Positions 50,011-64,000 of a stretch of DNA of 64,000 bases are shown here, one piece after another; the stretch's first letter is position 1; each line of letters begins with the position of its first letter. This DNA is from Ostreococcus lucimarinus (Eukaryota), in the NCBI GenBank assembly GCA_000092065.1, contig CP000582.1; one strand, written 5' to 3'. The translations under genes and the position numbers were made by a program. The notes under the pieces are model-generated. The model made no database searches and had not been told where the DNA came from. It saw only the letters and a program-made list of their open reading frames with translations.

Positions 50011-51276
50011 TCACACGCCGCTCTTGGGATCGTACACGCGCATCAGCTCCTTCGCCGCTCGCTCGTACGTCTCATCGCTCGTATTCTCGAGGAACAGTGG
50101 TTTTGCGTTTTCGACTTCCTGCGGGCGCGATCGAGCCGCGGCTGCGGCGTACGCCGAGTCGTAGTGTTCTTCTAGTATATCTTGCACGAAAGCATCCCAG
50201 TCTCCACCGGCGATGAGCGCCTTCCACGCATTCACCCTCTCGTGTCCGACGCGCTTCACGAGAACATCTATACACTCCAACAAGCGATCCGTCTCCGTCG
50301 TCTCAAAGTGCTGGTACCCCGCTCGAATCCACTTCACGCGCTCCGACATGGGTATCTCCAGCTGTGTCACCGCTCCTTTGCGCATGCCTGACCACATCGT
50401 GCTGGGCACTTGGACTTTTCCAATCATTGAGCTCTCGCCCTCGACGAACACGGGCCTTGTGGGATCGAACCGGCGCGCCTTGCACGCGATGCGAGAGTCA
50501 AAAAGTTTTTGACTTGGCTGCTCGCGTGCGCCGGGTTCTTCCCCTAGAATCGAGCCACGATGATTTGCCATCACTTCTAAATCGATCACCTGCGCACCCG
50601 CGGCTTCGAGAGCGTCCAATAACTTACCCTTTGCACAACCGGTTTTTCCCGCGACGACGTGATAGGAAAATTGATCCATCCCTCGCAACCATTCGAGCAC
50701 GCCAGCTCGGTAACGTTTATACCCGCCGGGGGCAAAGTGAACATCAAAACCAATTCTGCTGAGCACGTGCGCCAGACTGAGCGACCGCTCACCGCCGCGC
50801 CAACAATAAACTAAAATCTTCGTCGACTTTTCGCAAGCCATGAAATTTTCATCAATTATCTTACTCAAGTTTTGTGCCACGAGCGCTGCCCCGAGTTTCT
50901 TCGCCTCAAACGGGTCGACTTGCTTATATATAGTTCCCACACGTTTCCTCTCTTCGTCATCAAGCACTGGGGTGCTTATCGCTCCCGGGACGTGGTCGTC
51001 CTCGTACTCGCTCGGCGCGCGCGCGTCGCACACGTAGTCGAACGCTCCCGCGTCGAATCCATCGTCGTCGAGCGTCACCGTTCGAATGCGTGGGCCGAGG
51101 TCCAAGAAGTCCTCGGGATAGGTGTGTTTAGCCTGCGCGCGCGCGGGCGCAGGTCCAGCGCGATGTCCCCAGTGCCTAACGACCGCTTCAGGTTTTCGCG
51201 CGAAATGCGCGACAAGCGACGTCGCACGACCGCGCGTCGAGCTCGCGCGAAGTGCGTGCGAGCACATGTGACGCAT
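50011..51276 (-). CDS. selU: tRNA 2-selenouridine synthase (SelU/MnmH family: rhodanese domain + P-loop domain) with an N-terminal organellar-type presequence
   Basis: A rhodanese domain is present (YVCDARAPSEYEDDHVPGAISTPVL..., active-site LVYCWRGGERSL), followed by a P-loop region (VVAGKTGCAKGKLL). The track start at 51342 is a TTG; the first ATG is 51276 (MRHMCSHALRASSTRGRATSLVAHFARK..., a basic/hydroxylated presequence). Confidence 0.75.
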   Translation of the reverse strand: MRHMCSHALRASSTRGRATSLVAHFARKPEAVVRHWGHRAGPAPARAQAKHTYPEDFLDLGPRIRTVTLDDDGFDAGAFDYVCDARAPSEYEDDHVPGAISTPVLDDEERKRVGTIYKQVDPFEAKKLGAALVAQNLSKIIDENFMACEKSTKILVYCWRGGERSLSLAHVLSRIGFDVHFAPGGYKRYRAGVLEWLRGMDQFSYHVVAGKTGCAKGKLLDALEAAGAQVIDLEVMANHRGSILGEEPGAREQPSQKLFDSRIACKARRFDPTRPVFVEGESSMIGKVQVPSTMWSGMRKGAVTQLEIPMSERVKWIRAGYQHFETTETDRLLECIDVLVKRVGHERVNAWKALIAGGDWDAFVQDILEEHYDSAYAAAAARSRPQEVENAKPLFLENTSDETYERAAKELMRVYDPKSGV

Positions 51277-51447
51277 TGAACTCGCGAGCGAATTTGCGAC
51301 ACGCGTCGCGTCACGGTCGACGCGCTGGCGTGTGCTGCACAAGCAGGCGGCGGGACAACGCCGTATTCGGCGAGAAGACGCATTTGAACATTCGTCGGCG
51401 TGTCCGTCACAATGGGCTAGTCTATATCAGCTAATTATCGTGTATTT

Positions 51448-55308: not shown

Positions 55309-57399
55309 ATGTCCGACACGGCTCGCGCGACGCGGGTGAAGAATAAAGCGCCCGCGCCGGTGCAAATCACCGCGGAACAAATCGTGCGCGAATCCGCGGA
55401 GCGCGCGGAGGACGTGTACGGGGCGCCGAAGCGGAAGATCGCGGACCAGGAGGAGCTGAAGGAGTACAGATACGAACAGCGGAAGCAGTTCGAGGATCGA
55501 GTGCGGTCGTCGTACTGGGAACCGCGGGCGTGGATACGGTACGCGAAGTGGGAGGAGGGACAGGGGGATTTGCCGAGGGCGCGAAGCGTGTGGGAGCGAG
55601 CGCTGGAACATCACGGACGGGACGTGCCGATATGGTTGCAGTACGCGGAGATGGAGATGAAGAACAAAGCGATCAATCACGCGAGGAACGTGTGGGAGCG
55701 GGCGTGCTCGACGCTGCCGAGGATTGATGTGTTTTGGTACAAGTACGTGAACATGGAGGAGACGCTCGGGCAGGTTGCGGCGGCGAGACAGGTTTTCGAG
55801 AAATGGATGAAGTGGGAACCCGAACACACGGCGTGGAACGCGTATGTGAAGATGGAGCAGAGGTACGGGGAGAAAGAGCGGGCGAGGGATATCTTTCAGC
55901 GGTATGTGCAGGTGCACCCGGACGTGAAGGCGTGGACGCGCTGGGCAAAGTTTGAGTTTTCGTCGGGCGAACGCGACAAGGCGCGCGAGGTGTACGAAGC
56001 CGCGGTGGAGTTTCTGCGGAACGAACCAGAGGTTGGGAACTTATACGCCAACTTTGCCAAGTTTGAGGAGATGTGTCACGAAGTTGAGCGCGCTCGGGCG
56101 ATTTATAAATTCGCTCTCGATCGTTTGCCCAAGGAGCAAGCCGAGTCTGTGTACAAGGAGTTTATGAAGTTTGAAAAGATGCACGGAAATCGAGAAGGGA
56201 TCGAGGACGTCGTTGTGGGGCAACGACGGTTCAAGTACGAGGAAGAAGTGTCCAAGAATCCGCTGAACTACGACACTTGGTTCGATTACATTAGACTAGA
56301 AGAAAACGCCGGCGACATGGCGAAGACGCGCGAGGTGTACGAACGCGCCATCGCCAACGTGCCGCCAGCGAACGAAAAACGCTTTTGGCAGCGATACATT
56401 TATATTTGGATCAACTACGCGCTTTACGAAGAGCTCGAGGCGCGAGACGTGGAACGCACGCGAGAGGTGTACCGAGCGTGCCTCAAGGTGATTCCACACG
56501 CCGAGTTTTCGTTTTCAAAGATTTGGATCATGGCGGCAAAGTTCGAGCTTCGTCAGCGACGACTCGATGCGTGCCGTAAGATTTTTGGATTGGCCATTGG
56601 ATTAGCACCGAAGGCAAAGATATTCGCGACTTACATTGAGATCGAGTTCCAGCTCGGGAACGTCGACAGGTGTCGCACCCTGTACGAAAAGTACTTGGAA
56701 ATTGAGCCGCAAAATTGCTCGACGTGGATCAAGTACGCCGAACTCGAGCGATCGCTCGGAGAAATCGAACGTGGGCGCTCGATTTTCGAACTCGCGGTTG
56801 ATCAGGCCATGCTAGACATGCCGGAGGTACTTTGGAAGGCGTACATCGATTTCGAGACGTCCGAGGGAGAGCGCGAGCGTACGCGCGCGCTTTACGAGCG
56901 TCTTCTCGAGCGTACGAAGCACGTCAAGGTATGGATGTCTTACGCGCGCTTCGAAGCAACACCGATTGTTGTTGTGGATGACGACGCCGACGACGCTGCG
57001 ATAGCCGCCGCCACCGCCGCGGCGGAGAACGACGAGCACGAACGCCTCGAGACGCGCCAAGCGAAAAGCCGCGCCGTGTACGAGCGAGCGCTCGCTGAAC
57101 TCAAAGAAATCGATCCAGACGCCAAAGAAGAGCGTGTCATGCTTCTCGAGGCGTGGAAGTCATTCGAAGACACCTTACCGAGCGAATTCTCGAAATCCGC
57201 CGACGTCAAGGCGCGTCTTCCCAAGCGCGTTAAGCGCAAGCGCGCCGTCGAGGACGACGACGGTCGCGAAATCGCACAGGAAGAGTACTACGATTACGTC
57301 TTCCCCGACGACGCCGGCGCCGCGCAACCGTCGCTCAAGCTTCTCGAAGCCGCGTACGCGTGGAAGAAGGCCAAAGCCGCGGCTGAGGCGACGGATTAA
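55309..57399 (+). CDS. CRNKL1: Crooked-neck-like pre-mRNA splicing factor (CRNKL1/Clf1/Syf3), HAT repeats
   Basis: ATG at 55309. Tandem HAT repeats run throughout (…WIRYAKWEE..., IWLQYAEMEMK..., FWYKYVNMEE..., AWNAYVKMEQRYG..., AWTRWAKFEF...). An acidic C-terminus follows. This is the typical Clf1 layout. Confidence 0.9.
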   Translation: MSDTARATRVKNKAPAPVQITAEQIVRESAERAEDVYGAPKRKIADQEELKEYRYEQRKQFEDRVRSSYWEPRAWIRYAKWEEGQGDLPRARSVWERALEHHGRDVPIWLQYAEMEMKNKAINHARNVWERACSTLPRIDVFWYKYVNMEETLGQVAAARQVFEKWMKWEPEHTAWNAYVKMEQRYGEKERARDIFQRYVQVHPDVKAWTRWAKFEFSSGERDKAREVYEAAVEFLRNEPEVGNLYANFAKFEEMCHEVERARAIYKFALDRLPKEQAESVYKEFMKFEKMHGNREGIEDVVVGQRRFKYEEEVSKNPLNYDTWFDYIRLEENAGDMAKTREVYERAIANVPPANEKRFWQRYIYIWINYALYEELEARDVERTREVYRACLKVIPHAEFSFSKIWIMAAKFELRQRRLDACRKIFGLAIGLAPKAKIFATYIEIEFQLGNVDRCRTLYEKYLEIEPQNCSTWIKYAELERSLGEIERGRSIFELAVDQAMLDMPEVLWKAYIDFETSEGERERTRALYERLLERTKHVKVWMSYARFEATPIVVVDDDADDAAIAAATAAAENDEHERLETRQAKSRAVYERALAELKEIDPDAKEERVMLLEAWKSFEDTLPSEFSKSADVKARLPKRVKRKRAVEDDDGREIAQEEYYDYVFPDDAGAAQPSLKLLEAAYAWKKAKAAAEATD

Positions 57400-57760
57400 A
57401 CGGATAAACACACCATATCCATCTATGATAGCACTCCAGACCCTTCGAATACGACAAAACCAAAACCTACGCCATCCGTACCTCAACGCCGCGCGCGCTC
57501 GAACGTCACACGCGCTCGCCCGACGCGTACGGCGGACTCGCGCCGGGCCGACACGACGGATCACTGAGGTGACTCCGCGCACACGCACGATTCAGCGCGC
57601 GCACGCGGCGCCCGCGCGCGCCGCGCACGGGCCGCGCGCGAACGCGAATTCCAGGCGGCGACCGACGCGGCGACGCGACCGACGCGCGACGACCAAACGC
57701 GCGTCCATCGGCTACCCGAGCGGTGAAGACGTCGACGTCAGCATCGACATCGACGCCGAA

Positions 57761-60427
57761 ATGTCGAAGATCGCGGTCGAGCGCGCGCTGCCGACGATGT
57801 TCAGCGACCTGACGATGACGGACCCCAAGCACTGGCGGTCGACGCACGCGAGAATCGCGAACGGACCGGTGGTGCCGCAACAACTCATCGGTGGGACGCC
57901 GATGATCGATTTGAGTGAATTCAGTGCGAATCCAAAGGTGAAGATTTATGGCAAGTGCGAGTACTTGAATCCGAGCGGGAGTATTAAGGATCGAATCGCG
58001 CAGGAAATTTTGGCGAGAGCGCTGGAAACGGGAGAGCTGAAGGCGGGGATGACGGTCGTCGCGGCGACGAGTGGGAACACGGGTGCGGCGATTGCGATGG
58101 CGTGTGCGATTCGCGGGTTTCCATACATCGTGATTACGAATCAGAAGACGAGCAAGGAGAAGATTGACGCCATGCGGGCGTATGGGGGGGAGGTCATCGT
58201 CGCACCGAGCGGGGTGCCGGCGGATCACCCGGATCATTATCAAAACATCGAAGCGACGATGTGCGCAAAAAATCCGAAATTTTATGGTGTGAATCAATAC
58301 GACAATCCGTACAACGCGGATGCGTACGAAAAGACACTTGGTCCTGAGATTTGGTCGCAAACCGAAGGGGCGGTGACGCACTTCGTCGCCGGTGGCTCGA
58401 CTGGCGGTACGATCACAGGCACGGGTCGTTATCTTAAGAGTGTCGACCCGACGATTAAAATCGTCTTGGCCGATCCCAAGGGAAGCGTTCTGTGGGATTA
58501 TTTTGTGAACGACATTCCTGAAGAAGAACTCGTGGCGAAGAGTTGGGAAGTCGAGGGTGTGGGTAAAGATTCCATTCCGGGTGTACTCGACACCGAATAC
58601 ATTGACGGCGCCGTCATGGGTGACGACAGTAGTTCCTTCCGCATGGTTCGCACGGTTGCTGAATCTTCTGGTGTCTTGCTCGGTGGTAGCTCCGGTCTAA
58701 ACCTGCACGCTGCTCGCGTGCTCTCGAGTCACATCAAGGAGGGGACCATCGTCACGGTACTGTGCGACAGCGGTGTCAAGTACTTGTCCAAGATCTATAA
58801 CGATGAGTGGCTTCAAGCGAAGAATCTTGACAAACCGTTAGCCGACGTTTCGAAGTACGAAGTCCACTGGAAGAACGGCTCGCATGAAGTAACGGAGGAT
58901 GAAGAAAACGACAGCTTGTGGGGCCGTGAACAGGAAGAGAAAGAACTTCGTTTCCTCGATGAAGTGGCGACGCACATGGTTGAATACCACCGTAACTCGA
59001 TTCGAGCGACGGAACCGGTGAGTGTGTACAACTCTCCCGCCGATCTCCACGCCAGCTTCGAAGAGATGGGCGTTCCACTGAATTTTCGCTCCGGCGAATC
59101 GCCAATTTCCATCAACAATCTTACAACCGCTATGAATGCTGTTTTGGACAACAGTGTGCGAAGCTCGCACCCGATGTTCATGAATCAGCTCTACGCAGGC
59201 GTTGACCCCATCGCGCTCGCGGGCGAATGGGCATCAAGCGCGCTGAACTCAAACGTGCACACCTTTGAAGTAGCACCGATTCTCACCGAAATTGAGCGTT
59301 CAATGCTCGCAAAGATTGCGTCACTCTGGCTTGGAGAGAATGCAGATGGCTCGGCGCCTGATCACGACGGCTTATTTGTACCGGGAGGTTCCATCGCTAA
59401 TCTGTACTCTATGATCTTGGCGCGCGAGCGCGCATGCCCAGAAGCGAAGAAAACCGGAATGCCGCAAGGCTACGTTGCCTTCTGCTCTGAACAATCGCAC
59501 TACTCCTACAAGAAGTGCGCCCACATGATAGGTTTAGGTATGGATAACATGATCAAGGTCGATTGTGGCAAGAATGGTGCCATGCTTCCTGAAGCACTCG
59601 AAGCCGCGATAGCGGCCGCGAAGGCTGCGGGCAAGACACCGTTTTACTGCGGCGCCACGGCGGGGAGCACTGTTTTGGGCGCGTATGACCCGTTTGCTGC
59701 GTTGGCCGACGTGTGTGCCAAAGATAACGTTTGGTTGCACGTCGATGGGGCGTGGGGTGGCGCTGCGCTCGTCTCCAAGCAGCACAAACACTTGATGAAC
59801 GGCGTCGAGCGAGCAGACAGCTTTTGCTGGAACCCGCACAAGCTGTTGGGCATTCCTCTCCAGTGCTCCATCGTTCTGAGTAGACACGCTGGAGAATTCA
59901 TGGCGGCCAATTCTTACAAGGCGGACTACTTGTTCCAGCCCGACAAGAATAACACCGAAGCTGATTTGGGCGATCGCACTATCCAATGCGGCCGCAAGTC
60001 TGACGCGCTCAAATTGTGGCTCGCGTGGAAGTACCGCGGCGACGAAGGTTGGGAAAAACTCGTTGACCACGCCTTCTCTTTGGCCAAGTTCGTCGAAGCA
60101 GAAGTCGTGCAGGACACCACGGGTGCTTGGGCGCTGGCCACACCCGCGCAGTGCGCCAATGTCGGATTCTGGTACGTGCCGCCGCGCCTACGTCCGTTCA
60201 ACAAGGACACCGCGACGCCCGAACAATTCGCGGAAATTGCCAAGGTTGCCCCGAAGCTCAAGGATCGGATGCAACGCGCCGGTGACGCTATGATCGGTTT
60301 CCAACCCGTTCCGGCGCTCAACCTGCCCAACTTTTTCCGTCTCGTATTGCCGAATCCTCGTCACAACAGCGAGACCAAGCTTCGCGAGCTCATGAAGCGC
60401 ATGGACGCGATGGGCGCCGACCTCTGA
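57761..60427 (+). CDS. Bifunctional PLP protein: N-terminal cysteine-synthase/CBS-fold (fold-type II) domain fused to a C-terminal group-II decarboxylase (CSAD/GAD-like) domain
   Basis: N-domain motifs: IGGTPMIDL, KCEYLNPSGSIKDRIA, TSGNTGAAIA, GGSTGGTITG. C-domain: the NPHKLLGIPLQCS PLP-lysine motif, SIANLYSMILARE, and overall CSAD/GADL1/GAD similarity. The track ORF starts at 57134 in Arg-rich sequence overlapping the 3' end of the upstream gene; ATG 57761 (MSKIAVERAL) is chosen. No stop lies between the two domains. Confidence 0.85.
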   Translation: MSKIAVERALPTMFSDLTMTDPKHWRSTHARIANGPVVPQQLIGGTPMIDLSEFSANPKVKIYGKCEYLNPSGSIKDRIAQEILARALETGELKAGMTVVAATSGNTGAAIAMACAIRGFPYIVITNQKTSKEKIDAMRAYGGEVIVAPSGVPADHPDHYQNIEATMCAKNPKFYGVNQYDNPYNADAYEKTLGPEIWSQTEGAVTHFVAGGSTGGTITGTGRYLKSVDPTIKIVLADPKGSVLWDYFVNDIPEEELVAKSWEVEGVGKDSIPGVLDTEYIDGAVMGDDSSSFRMVRTVAESSGVLLGGSSGLNLHAARVLSSHIKEGTIVTVLCDSGVKYLSKIYNDEWLQAKNLDKPLADVSKYEVHWKNGSHEVTEDEENDSLWGREQEEKELRFLDEVATHMVEYHRNSIRATEPVSVYNSPADLHASFEEMGVPLNFRSGESPISINNLTTAMNAVLDNSVRSSHPMFMNQLYAGVDPIALAGEWASSALNSNVHTFEVAPILTEIERSMLAKIASLWLGENADGSAPDHDGLFVPGGSIANLYSMILARERACPEAKKTGMPQGYVAFCSEQSHYSYKKCAHMIGLGMDNMIKVDCGKNGAMLPEALEAAIAAAKAAGKTPFYCGATAGSTVLGAYDPFAALADVCAKDNVWLHVDGAWGGAALVSKQHKHLMNGVERADSFCWNPHKLLGIPLQCSIVLSRHAGEFMAANSYKADYLFQPDKNNTEADLGDRTIQCGRKSDALKLWLAWKYRGDEGWEKLVDHAFSLAKFVEAEVVQDTTGAWALATPAQCANVGFWYVPPRLRPFNKDTATPEQFAEIAKVAPKLKDRMQRAGDAMIGFQPVPALNLPNFFRLVLPNPRHNSETKLRELMKRMDAMGADL

Positions 60428-60649: not shown

Positions 60650-62061
60650 ATGGTTCGCGTCAAAACCATCGAAATCGCGTGGCACAACGTCGAGAAAACA
60701 AACGTACGCGCGCATCGCGCCCTCGCCGCGCGCATCGCGCGTCGCATTCGTCGCACTAACGTCTCGTCGTCGTCACTTTTCGAACGCAGCAACCGATTCT
60801 TTCGGTCGATTTTAATCCCCGCACGGGCGCGTTGGCGACCGCGGGCGCGGATAACGAGATCAAACTCTGGCGCGTGGACCGATCGATCGATGGTGAGGTG
60901 ACGGTGACGCACACGGAGACGCTGACGGGACACGCCAAGGCGGTGAACTGCTGTCGGTTTAGCGCGAACGGTCGAGCGTTGGCGAGCGCGGGAGACGCGG
61001 GAGACGTGTACGTGTGGCGAGAGGTGGACGTGGGGTCGACGACGGTCAATTCGCACGGAGACGTTGTCGGGTGGAAGCCGATGAAGACGCTGCGCGGGCA
61101 CTCGGACGATGCGTTGAGCGTCTGCTGGGGACCGAGGGAGACGCTGGCGAGCGCTTCGGTGGATAACACGACGATTTTATGGGATTGCGAGAGTGGTAAC
61201 GGTGTGGTGCAGTTGCGCGAACACGCGCATTACGTGCAGGGAGTGAGTTATGATCCGCGGGGGGAGTTTATAGTCTCGCAGAGTCCCGATCGAACCGCAC
61301 AAGTGTACGCCGTTGTCGGCGGCGGTAAGCCGTCGGCGAAGAGCGTGAAACACGTGCGGGCGATTAAGGCGATTAACGACACGAATGAGAGAGTCGATGG
61401 CGGGCGCATGGCGTCAATCTTTCACGACGACTCTATGACGTCGTTTTTCCGCCGCCCGGCCTGGTCACCAGATGGTTCGTTCGTAGTGTTTCCGGCTGGA
61501 GTGTTCAAACGCCCGGGCGCCAAGCGAGCCATGCATACGACGTATGTCTACGCTCGTGGGAACTTTGAAACGCCCGTCATGCACTTACCAGGCGGCGAGA
61601 CGCCATCTGTGTGTGTTAGATTCAATCCTGTGCTGTTCAAGCGTCGAAAAGACGCCGCTGATCCTACGACACCGTCAGACTTGCCGTATCGCGTCGTCTT
61701 CGCGGTGTGCTCGCAAGACGGCGTCACGATCTACGACACCGATGAAACCGAACCGATCGTGTACGTCGCTGGTATCCACTGCACGTCTATCACAGACTGC
61801 GCATGGTCCCCGGATGGTGGAATGCTTGTCGTGAGTAGCACGGACGGTTTCGCGAGCGTCGTCGCCTTCGATGAAGGCGAGCTTGGCGCGCCAGAGACTA
61901 ACATCCCCGAACACGTGAAGTCTTTGCTAGCGTCGTCGAGGATAGGAGAAAGCGTGCCCGATGAAGTTGTCGTTGTTGCGCCGGCGGTACCCAATCCGGT
62001 AGCCGCTGGACCGGGACCGACGAGAATCGCGCCAGTGCGCATCGCGCCGACGCCCATGTAG
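60650..62061 (+). CDS. CHAF1B: Chromatin assembly factor 1 subunit B (CAF-1 p60, WD40); two exons (exon 1 60650..60703; intron 60704..60789; exon 2 60790..62061)
   Basis: Exon 2 is colinear with CAF1B (ADNEIKLWRV..., TGHAKAVNCCRFSANG..., LRGHSDDALSVCWGP..., ASASVDNTTILWD..., MFHDDSMTSFFRRPAWSPDGS..., LPYRVVFAVCSQDGV..., SSTDGFASVVAFDEGELG). The track start at 60832 is a TTG. The upstream ATG ORF (MVRVKTIEIAWHN...) matches the CAF1B N-terminus (MKVITCEIAWHN). Intron: GTACGC donor, ACTAAC branch point 27 nt before the CAG acceptor. Confidence 0.8.
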
Positions 62062-62257: not shown

Positions 62258-64000
62258 TTAGAACGTGGCGTTCCAATCGCTCGTCTTTACACGCGTCGAT
62301 CGACGCGTTGGCGTCGTCGGTGCGCTTAGATGACCCCCGACGGATCCATTAACCAAAAGACATTTTTTCCCGTTACCACCGTAGCCAAGAGCGCACCCAA
62401 CAGAAGACACAAAGTTTTTCACCAACGCGCCCGCCTTGGCCGCCGCCGCTCCCATCGGAGACTTCAAATGAGGGTCGGATTGCGGCAAGACAGACTCGTT
62501 CGGAACAACGATTTGCGCGACGTCGAACTCAGTTTTCTCAACCGAACGACGGGGAGGAGACGCGAGGGCATCCGGCGCAGGTCTGTTCGCGCCAGATTTC
62601 TTCACGGGTTCCTCCTTTTTAATCGCACGTTCCTTTGTGCTTTCGCTGATAATTTTCTTCTTCTTGGGCACAACGCACGTGCTGGGATCGTACTGAACGA
62701 CGTCCCACCCGTGCGCTAAGAGCTCATCGAGCGGATCAAACGTAATCGTCAGAGGTAGTGAGACGGCATCGTCCATCGCCGCCTGGACGCGGCGACGACG
62801 CTTTGTCGCAGCCGGATTGAAACACGGTCTGCGGCGTCGCTTCCTCTGCGCTTCAGCTTGCTCTGCTCTAAGCGCTCTCTCTTTTTGCTGCCTCGAGACG
62901 GCCTGAAGATTGAAACAGAATAAATAAGCGAGTTGCTCAGATTCCGTGGCAAGTTCGGGACGCTCTCTCAGCCGCAACGGAGGCACTGGATCAAAGCGCG
63001 AAAGCAAAGGTTTCCCTCCGTTTTTCCATCGCATGTTGAGCCAGTACCGGTAGATCTTGCAAAACACCGCAAGAGAGGGTGCTTTTTTGTTGATCTTGAA
63101 TATTTTGTCGTTTATTTGGTTAACGATTTTGACTGCGTTCTTGAGCTCACTCTTGCCTCCAGTCGGGGGGCGCGGCACACGGGCGCCGCGAGCGATAAAC
63201 ATAGATTTACCGCCGCGACGCGTCATACCCACATGGGCGCGGGTGCCGAGATCACTGCTCTTTACGTTTTCCGACGGTTGACGAACCGTATTCGTCGCAT
63301 ACTGACGTTCGATGAGATCGTCGGCAGACTGCGTCGACGAATTGTCGTCACCGTTTTCCGATGGAACGCCGTCCGAAGGAGACGCTCGCTTCTGCAAGAA
63401 TTGAACGCTCCCACTCGGTGTCAACGGTGCCGCGGCCGTTTCCGATGAGCTTTGATTGGATCGTTCGTCATTCAAATCGAATGGGTTCCAGTTTTCAGCC
63501 TCAGCCTTGAGGTTAACGAGTTGACCGTCGCCCAACTGTGCGTTCGACGCCCAGTGCAAAACATCCTCAAGCTTCCCCTCCGCGGTGTTGGCCGAGTTGA
63601 AGATGTTGCCGAGTACGGTTTGCGCCGCCTGCTCTTGCGTTGGCATCGCAGACGCCGCCCAAGACGTTTCCTCAAAGACGTCGAAGAGCTTCTCCAAGTG
63701 TTCTGGACGCATGTAGTTGGCGTTCGGCGTCGTCGTGCACACCTCCGATCCCTTGCCTTCAAGTGGCTCGTCAGCATTCATGTGTTCGAGCCACTTGAAA
63801 TCCGCTGCCGTGGCCTCGTACATGGACGCCGCCGTGCCCGGGCCGAATCGGTGAAGTTGATGATCCGGCGCTTGCTGACGCAAATACTTGGCCGGTTGTC
63901 TGAATCCGCCGGCGTGCAACGCTTCGTAATCCGACACAACGTTGAAGTTCGGAACGTGAATGTTTGCCTTTGGCGCGAAGTAATCGCGCGCGGGCTTCTG
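62258..64000 (-). CDS. Enhancer-of-polycomb-like (EPcA-domain) chromatin protein, 5'-truncated at the window edge
   Basis: The frame is open to nt 64000, and the track 'M' at 63937 is a GTG. The N-terminal region (…IHVPNFNVVSDYEALHAGGFRQPAKYLR...YEATAADFKWLEHMN...MRPEHLEKLFDVFE) matches the EPcA pattern of Epl1/EPC proteins. The family call is moderate. Confidence 0.5.
   Translation of the reverse strand, partial: QKPARDYFAPKANIHVPNFNVVSDYEALHAGGFRQPAKYLRQQAPDHQLHRFGPGTAASMYEATAADFKWLEHMNADEPLEGKGSEVCTTTPNANYMRPEHLEKLFDVFEETSWAASAMPTQEQAAQTVLGNIFNSANTAEGKLEDVLHWASNAQLGDGQLVNLKAEAENWNPFDLNDERSNQSSSETAAAPLTPSGSVQFLQKRASPSDGVPSENGDDNSSTQSADDLIERQYATNTVRQPSENVKSSDLGTRAHVGMTRRGGKSMFIARGARVPRPPTGGKSELKNAVKIVNQINDKIFKINKKAPSLAVFCKIYRYWLNMRWKNGGKPLLSRFDPVPPLRLRERPELATESEQLAYLFCFNLQAVSRQQKERALRAEQAEAQRKRRRRPCFNPAATKRRRRVQAAMDDAVSLPLTITFDPLDELLAHGWDVVQYDPSTCVVPKKKKIISESTKERAIKKEEPVKKSGANRPAPDALASPPRRSVEKTEFDVAQIVVPNESVLPQSDPHLKSPMGAAAAKAGALVKNFVSSVGCALGYGGNGKKCLLVNGSVGGHLSAPTTPTRRSTRVKTSDWNATF

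Follow-up and report, generated by a model that had tools for sequence, protein, structure and literature searches.

The bacterial cysteate synthase CapA is the first enzyme in the synthesis of sulfonolipids (capnine/sulfobacin) from L-phosphoserine; it is a stand-alone protein of 333 amino acids (aa) that feeds an acyltransferase. In animals, the substrate of the decarboxylases CSAD and GADL1 is supplied by a cysteine dioxygenase (CDO). Malatesta and co-authors are said to have reported, in 2020, that a sauropsid cysteine lyase derived from cystathionine β-synthase (CBS) makes cysteate for taurine, and this enzyme is a precedent for a cysteate maker with the CBS fold whose product is then decarboxylated to taurine. 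The same order of steps, cysteate first and decarboxylation second, is given for sauropsids in the literature. In phytoplankton, cysteate has been detected and proposed as the precursor of taurine, isethionate and 2,3-dihydroxypropane-1-sulfonate (DHPS), by a biosynthetic mechanism that a 2024 paper described as unknown, and Micromonas commoda appears to release taurine and isethionate, to judge from bacterial reporter-gene expression. Here, we describe a gene at positions 57761-60427 (+ strand) of a 64,000-nucleotide (nt) stretch of the Ostreococcus lucimarinus genome (contig CP000582.1, assembly GCA_000092065.1; hereafter, the window is this whole stretch and the window protein is the product of the gene), in which a pyridoxal 5′-phosphate (PLP) domain of the CBS, cysteine synthase and cysteate synthase superfamily is fused to a decarboxylase related to GAD and CSAD. 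The sequence suggests, with what we judge to be an even chance of being right, that a cysteate synthase and a cysteate decarboxylase reside on one polypeptide, which would lead from serine and sulfite to taurine.

Both the gene and the hypothesis are already known. The O. tauri orthologue OUS42194.1 (P0154; UniRef100_A0A1Y5I202, 888 aa) comes from another Ostreococcus species or clade, is 83% identical to the window protein over the full length, with both domains and the motifs alike, and shows no functional distinction. It is already named 'cysteine synthetase/pyridoxal dependent decarboxylase' in public records, and relatives carry the IMG name 'cysteine synthase/glutamate/tyrosine decarboxylase-like PLP-dependent enzyme'; the novelty implied by the first-pass annotation, made from the letters of the window alone, thus falls away. 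In a full-text literature search we found no paper describing the fusion, and none in which the names 'cysteine synthetase' and 'pyridoxal dependent decarboxylase' occur together. Patents of Plant Sensory Systems (Turano and co-workers) are said to cover the expression of a 'CS/PLP-DC' from Micromonas and Ostreococcus for taurine, with taurine or hypotaurine as the claimed product, and Tevatia and co-workers reportedly described, in 2015, the synthesis of taurine from serine and sulfate in microalgae. What is added here is the lysine shared with CapA, the selectivity triad of the decarboxylase, the breadth of the distribution, the other architectures found in the clade of the N-terminal domain and a doubt about the start codon. 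The fusion is a directly testable candidate for a step of marine sulfonate biosynthesis.

A single reading frame encodes two PLP-dependent domains

Translation of 57761-60427 (+) gives 888 residues followed by a stop codon, with 0 internal stops. This is the minimal coding sequence, in which translation begins at the first ATG with a conserved counterpart at the start of the annotated O. tauri model. The uninterrupted open reading frame (ORF) reported in the first-pass annotation was thus recovered, and every motif quoted there was located in the translation: GGTPMIDL (aa 44-51), KCEYLNPSGSIKDR (SGSIKDR), which contains Lys76, TSGNTG (aa 103-108), GGSTGGTITG (aa 211-220) and NPHKLLGIPLQCS (aa 691-703), which contains Lys694. 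The assignment of a CysK/CysM/CBS-like and a CSAD/GAD-like domain to the same ORF was likewise borne out by Pfam and by matches in the PDB. The fold-type-II PLP domain (PALP, PF00291) matches aa 41-336 (57881-58768, +) with an E-value of 4.7e-75, and Pyridoxal_deC (PF00282) matches aa 447-805 with an E-value of 2.3e-90 and 303.5 bits against a cut-off of 27. Among solved structures, the N-terminal half aligns with the catalytic cores of CBS (E ~1e-65) and the C-terminal half, between aa 384 and the C-terminus, with human GAD67, GAD65 and CSAD and mouse GADL1 (E 1e-116 to 1e-101). A phmmer search of the PDB with the decarboxylase region returned GAD67 (E 5e-117), CSAD (E 2e-108) and GADL1 (E 4e-102), and Foldseek also places the C-terminal half with GAD, CSAD and GADL1 structures. 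The group-II (fold-type-I) decarboxylase region thus spans aa 384-888 (58910-60424, +), with end-to-end homology to the three animal enzymes.

The two halves are joined by an acidic linker (about aa 355-383; 58823-58909, +) that varies in length and carries indels in the orthologue alignment. Where the PALP homology ends, the GAD homology begins only about 25 variable, acidic residues further on, and the alignment of homologues is colinear across the junction, so that no intron or second start is needed; no stop codon lies between the domains. An AlphaFold2 model of the full protein shows two well-folded domains (mean predicted local distance difference test score, pLDDT, of 79.5; predicted template modelling score, pTM, of 0.58), with a pLDDT below 50 in the linker at aa 373-384. 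The polypeptide would combine two independent, catalytically competent PLP enzymes, and the fusion would set a 1:1 ratio of the domains and keep them close.

Distribution and conservation of the fusion

Besides the O. tauri orthologue, another Ostreococcus-clade protein (P0135) is 88% identical to the window protein over the full length, and marine metagenome proteins are 100% identical to it; these identities place the window in an Ostreococcus-type genome of the Mamiellophyceae. Full-length proteins with both domains were found in Ostreococcus spp., Bathycoccus prasinos, Mantoniella antarctica, Pycnococcus provasolii/Pseudoscourfieldia marina, Prasinococcus capsulatus, Prasinoderma and Tetraselmis striata. 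The survey of algae that the first-pass annotation had proposed thus places the fusion in most "prasinophyte" lineages, with the decarboxylase occurring as a stand-alone gene, at about 50% identity, in the core chlorophytes Coccomyxa, Trebouxia, Raphidocelis, Monoraphidium and Elliptochloris, and in Cymbomonas. The fusion is also abundant in metagenomes and metatranscriptomes, with hundreds of cluster members. Moreover, both halves lie in one complete ORF in the MMETSP and EukProt transcriptome assemblies of Mantoniella and Prasinococcus, and both are thus carried by one mRNA in these relatives.

Two sequences carry unexpected organism labels. A fusion protein in the EukProt transcriptome of the choanoflagellate Didymoeca costata (P0009) is 77% identical to the window protein and is probably an algal contamination. 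The sequence labelled as that of the pelagophyte Pelagococcus subviridis in EukProt (P0013) clusters with those of Mantoniella type, pointing to contamination or to a transferred gene.

In an alignment of 15 fusion orthologues, the invariant positions of the N-terminal domain include Lys76, the SGN of the Asn loop, the STGGT of the phosphate loop, the EGVGKDS segment and Ser310; those of the C-terminal domain include His580, Asp662, His693-Lys694, Tyr723 and Arg860. That the catalytic residues of the two halves do not vary even between distant orthologues (Mamiellophyceae, Pycnococcus, Prasinococcus, Prasinoderma and Tetraselmis) argues that both active sites are under purifying selection. The window protein likewise carries the clade signatures EGVGKDSIP, AATSGNTG, GGSTGGT and NQLY...NxNVHT(F/Y)EVAP, as do essentially all of the full-length fusions retrieved.

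This conservation bears on the suggestion that the N-terminal domain is a non-catalytic or regulatory module with a PLP-enzyme fold, or that the locus consists of two separate genes joined by a gene-model artefact. The models of the O. tauri locus are indeed unstable, with a partial, decarboxylase-only model (XP_003075194.2) and a chimaera of PALP and SAPS (P0038) on record. Nevertheless, we regard the suggestion as largely refuted and very improbable in either form. A decayed or purely regulatory N-terminal domain was rejected because its active-site residues (the PLP lysine, the Asn loop, the phosphate loop and Ser310) are invariant in the 15 sequences. The two-gene artefact was rejected because the ORF runs without a stop or frame change between the halves and because full-length single ORFs occur in the transcriptomes of relatives; full-length single ORFs also recur in many independent assemblies, and the GAD homology begins so soon after the end of the PALP domain. 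As for the O. tauri records themselves, the older NCBI models are inconsistent with one another (P0038 has 808 aa and the partial model, also listed as P0153, has 493 aa), and the RCC1115 model is the full 888-aa fusion.

The N-terminal domain shares a loop lysine with CapA

The active-site residues of a fold-type-II PLP enzyme are all recognizable in the N-terminal domain. Lys76 (57986-57988, +), the Schiff-base lysine of the SGSIKDR motif, aligns with the PLP lysine of CBS and CapA and is invariant both in the 15 fusion orthologues and in a 13-sequence alignment of the clade. The substrate-carboxylate-binding Asn loop, TSGNTG (58067-58084, +), is preceded by a clade-specific 'AA' in place of 'EP/EG', and the PLP-phosphate-binding loop, GGSTGGTITG (58391-58420, +), in which Ser213 to Thr217 are invariant, has the form G[GS]STGGT in the clade and GxGTGGT in CBS. 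A third loop, EGVGKDSIP (58553-58579, +), is expected to lie at the entrance of the active site; it places Lys269 (58565-58567) at the position of Tyr308 in human CBS. The clade to which the domain belongs occurs only in eukaryotic sequences and is marked by AA(T/S)SGNTG, G(G/S)STGGT and EGVGK.

Against the NCBIfam models, the domain scores 306.6 bits for CBS (TIGR01137, cut-off 510, with profile positions 7-324 of 457 covered), 293.7 for cysteine synthase A (PRK10717, cut-off 387), 258.4 for the CapA cysteate synthase (NF053679, cut-off 600), 224.6 for CysK (TIGR01139, cut-off 351) and 202.4 for CysM (TIGR01138, cut-off 394). By these profile scores the domain is a member of no curated equivalog, be it CBS, CysK, CysM, PRK10717 or CapA. 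The catalytic core of CBS is nevertheless its best match in sequence and fold, and structure comparison places it with the CBS of A. mellifera and with PDB 9k2p, 'CapA1 from Capnocytophaga ochracea' (template modelling score 0.86, root-mean-square deviation 2.9 Å). The window protein differs from CBS in lacking a haem domain and the C-terminal CBS (Bateman) domains (no match to PF00571 in the Pfam search), and in having Lys instead of Tyr308. It differs from CapA, to which the domain is only 32% identical, in its fusion to a decarboxylase and in reading 'GSIKDR' and 'TSGNTG' where CapA reads 'HSAKDR' and 'SSGNTG'. What the two share is the fold-type-II PLP fold, the basic Lys in EG(I/V)GK and, presumably, a β-replacement with sulfite.

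The entrance loop reads EGIGYDFIP in CBS, EGVGEDFWP in M. tuberculosis Rv1077 and EGIGKNLIP in 9k2p; the sequence of the latter, rebuilt from an alignment, scores 614 bits on the CapA model, above the cut-off of 600. A scan of 185,579 prokaryotic genomes with patterns derived from the clade yielded 80 relatives with 36-46% identity, and none of these closest prokaryotic relatives has the loop lysine, the residue being Glu in 59, Gln in five, Gly in one and Glu or Asp in the other 15. Being common to the clade and to CapA and absent from these 80 proteins, Lys269 points to a cysteate synthase. None of the 80 genes is accompanied by a neighbouring gene for a group-II decarboxylase either, and the bacterial context thus tells nothing of function. 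In an exhaustive representative search with CapA as the query, no representative reached the CapA cut-off, and conservation of the lysine was therefore judged on proteins having CapA as their best hit: six of seven diverse relatives of this kind carry Lys or Arg at the loop position, whereas proteins with CBS as the best hit mostly carry Glu, Tyr or Gln. A separate homologue search with CapA returned only near-identical Capnocytophaga sequences. The basic residue of EGxG(K/R) is an empirical feature recognized here and forms no part of the curated definition of CapA. In place of an acidic or aromatic residue, it would suit a negatively charged co-substrate, be it sulfite or the phosphate group of O-phosphoserine.

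The same scores can be read in another way. CBS and cysteine synthase A are the top-scoring models and the public name of the orthologue begins with 'cysteine synthetase', as would be expected if the N-terminal domain made cysteine from sulfide, a separate cysteine dioxygenase oxidized it and the C-terminal domain formed hypotaurine, the fusion then joining the first and third steps of a pathway. There is general precedent for fusions between steps that do not follow one another in a pathway. We consider this unlikely: the lysine of the clade replaces the Tyr or Glu of relatives that use sulfide or thiols and matches CapA, the equivalog cut-offs of CysK, CysM and CBS are all missed, and the scheme depends on a cysteine dioxygenase.

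Other architectures occur in the same clade. In a compact eukaryotic genome from a metagenome, a PALP paralogue of 851 aa (P0060; L001 8001-10556, also L002 and L003) has a PALP domain that is 68% identical to that of the window protein and nearly identical to that of the fusion protein P0021. It is preceded by a disordered N-terminus and followed by a coiled-coil C-terminus of about 350 aa in place of the decarboxylase, and no decarboxylase gene lies near this locus. Tandem double-PALP proteins of about 700-800 aa (P0048 from Hondaea fermentalgiana, P0045, P0430, P0433 and P0094) are found in labyrinthulomycete-type organisms, and the exhaustive search with bacterial CapA returned them among its best hits. 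Finally, stand-alone PALP proteins with the EGVGK signature occur in dictyochophytes and pelagophytes.

The C-terminal domain and its substrate class

The hallmarks of group-II decarboxylases are present and invariant in the C-terminal domain: the Schiff-base lysine Lys694 of NPHK (59840-59842, +), the aligned counterpart of the NPHK lysine in GAD and CSAD, the stacking His580, Asp662 of DxAWGG, the catalytic-loop Tyr723 and also the distal Arg860. CSAD and GADL1 share the PLP lysine, stacking His, catalytic-loop Tyr and distal Arg with the domain and are homologous to it from end to end at about 37-38% identity. In structure-based alignments, the domain is roughly as far from animal GAD as from CSAD and GADL1 (35-39% identity), so that orthology cannot assign the substrate.

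The gate motif is more informative: it reads NQLYAG in the window protein, NQLFSG in CSAD and NQLSTG in GAD67 and GAD65. In mouse CSAD, Phe94 of this motif blocks substrates of the length of glutamate, and the same position is Ser in GAD and Tyr in GADL1 (Mahootchi et al.). By pairwise alignment, Tyr478, Asn498 and His500 of the window protein (59192-59260, +) correspond to Phe94, Ser114 and Tyr116 of mouse CSAD and to Ser, Asn and Phe of GAD67. The second and third of these positions are reportedly those described as selectivity determinants by Agnello and co-workers in 2013. The window protein thus has the gate Tyr of GADL1 and, with Tyr/Asn/His, departs from the Phe/Ser/Tyr triad of CSAD sensu stricto, although it shares an aromatic first residue with CSAD and GADL1; it also has Tyr478 where enzymes of the animal GAD65/67 type have Ser. 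Unlike the fused window protein, CSAD has no PALP partner. The aromatic gate residue Tyr478, being CSAD/GADL1-like, fits a cysteate decarboxylase, and the triad as a whole argues against glutamate as the substrate. The triad Y(F)/N/H occurs without exception in the fusion proteins, and it is also the commonest one in stand-alone homologues of protists, green algae and arthropods (70 of 105); it is thus the mark of a broad subgroup for short acidic amino acids and no adaptation specific to the fusion.

The gate bears on two alternatives. For the scheme introduced above, in which hypotaurine is made from cysteine sulfinate, it is a point in favour that CSAD and GADL1 prefer cysteine sulfinate and that the gate Tyr is GADL1-like. 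A second possibility is that the activities of the two domains are unconnected, the decarboxylase converting, for example, aspartate to β-alanine or glutamate to γ-aminobutyric acid, and the PALP domain being CBS-like or handling H2S, with the fusion serving co-expression or regulation. Aspartate decarboxylases are indeed found among GADL1 and arthropod CSAD/aspartate decarboxylase-like homologues with a gate Tyr and Y/N/H or Y/N/Y triads; moreover, the decarboxylase gene stands alone in core chlorophytes and members of the PALP clade are also fused to other modules, among them a coiled coil and another PALP domain. Set against this, the aromatic gate residue disfavours glutamate, and, if the domains had no functional link, it would be difficult to account for a fusion that very old green-algal lineages have kept with both active sites invariant. 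We therefore hold unconnected activities to be distinctly improbable.

A candidate route from sulfite to taurine

In the cysteate-to-taurine route that we propose, the N-terminal domain would form the PLP-aminoacrylate from an activated serine, the donor being O-phosphoserine, O-acetylserine, serine or cysteine, and would add sulfite to it to give L-cysteate; the C-terminal CSAD/GADL1-like domain would then remove the α-carboxyl group of cysteate to give taurine. Known chemistry leads to the intermediate: since the decarboxylase class of the C-terminal domain needs an acidic amino acid of three to four carbons, cysteate, formed with sulfite as the nucleophile, is the simplest β-replacement product that would serve. 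The sequence of steps from an activated serine and sulfite through cysteate to taurine had been put forward in the first-pass annotation, and it stands as the most coherent reading of the loop lysine, the gate Tyr478 and the apparent release of taurine by Micromonas, with a putative nucleophile and a putative substrate of the decarboxylase. The further idea of a channelled route found no support, as the AlphaFold2 model, at its pTM of 0.58, holds no confident inter-domain geometry.

Several observations weigh against the route from sulfite to taurine. The same model shows no defined contact between the domains. The CapA score of the N-terminal domain (258 bits) lies under its scores for CBS (307) and PRK10717 (294), the loop lysine is also present in a few proteins with CBS as the best hit (P0447, P0461 and P0487), and Lys269 is no proven determinant of sulfite binding. 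The Y/N/H triad is compatible with aspartate or cysteine sulfinate, besides cysteate, and a cysteine dioxygenase, if present in the alga, would make the cysteine-sulfinate route possible. In addition, our full-text literature search found no peer-reviewed enzymology of the fusion.

If the route is correct, taurine production by picoeukaryotes, among them Ostreococcus, Bathycoccus, Mantoniella and Tetraselmis, could be traced in metagenomes and metatranscriptomes by one marker gene, the fusion. The fusion would also represent a route from sulfite to taurine that is independent of oxygen, bypasses cysteine and runs parallel to the CDO/CSAD pathway of animals. More tentatively, and with rather less than even confidence, we suggest that the sulfite-dependent cysteate synthase so far missing from marine protists may be represented by the 'EGVGK' PALP clade. 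The fused decarboxylase would carry its product on to taurine in prasinophyte-grade algae, probably in the plastid; elsewhere, cysteate could feed DHPS, sulfolactate, isethionate or cysteinolate.

Start codon and possible targeting peptide

The position 57761 is a minimal start and not necessarily the true one. The frame is open on the + strand from 57134 to 60427, i.e., for 209 codons upstream of 57761, and contains an in-frame ATG at 57425, 26 nt past the stop codon of the upstream gene. Initiation there would add 112 aa (57425-57760, +), rich in Arg, Ala and Thr, basic and then with an acidic patch, as a possible extension that resembles a transit peptide. Other Ostreococcus-clade versions retain an upstream in-frame ATG and an extension of like character, an example from the O. 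tauri clade being MLSLPITTGALARTAPRAPCAAPTRRR...DADDLEELLNLDYPVD, and the orthologues derived from transcripts of Mantoniella, Prasinococcus and Bathycoccus are extended at the N-terminus by 100-220 aa. Against the extension, the intergenic space would shrink to 25 nt, the upstream segment shows weak codon-position GC periodicity and the O. tauri gene is annotated with the short start. Targeting to an organelle, plausibly the plastid, appears likely in relatives and possible for the window protein. Plastids are the expected site of sulfite and activated serine production, and an N-terminal targeting peptide, in relatives and possibly here, would place the enzyme in that compartment.

Genomic neighbourhood

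The gene lies among tightly packed ordinary nuclear genes, which code for exportin-1/CRM1, a rhodanese-domain protein, APC4, an acyltransferase, crooked-neck/CRNKL1 and CAF-1 subunit B; crooked-neck/CRNKL1 ends at 57399 and CAF-1 subunit B begins at 60832. These neighbours are housekeeping genes and say nothing on the function of the fusion. An ORF of 559 aa at 62258-63937 (- strand) codes for a low-complexity, basic protein without a Pfam match at E ≤ 0.001. The ORF with the rhodanese (sulfurtransferase-like) domain, of about 440 aa, lies at 50011-51342 (- strand). It is 6 kb away from the fusion gene, on the upstream side, which in a eukaryote is probably a coincidence.

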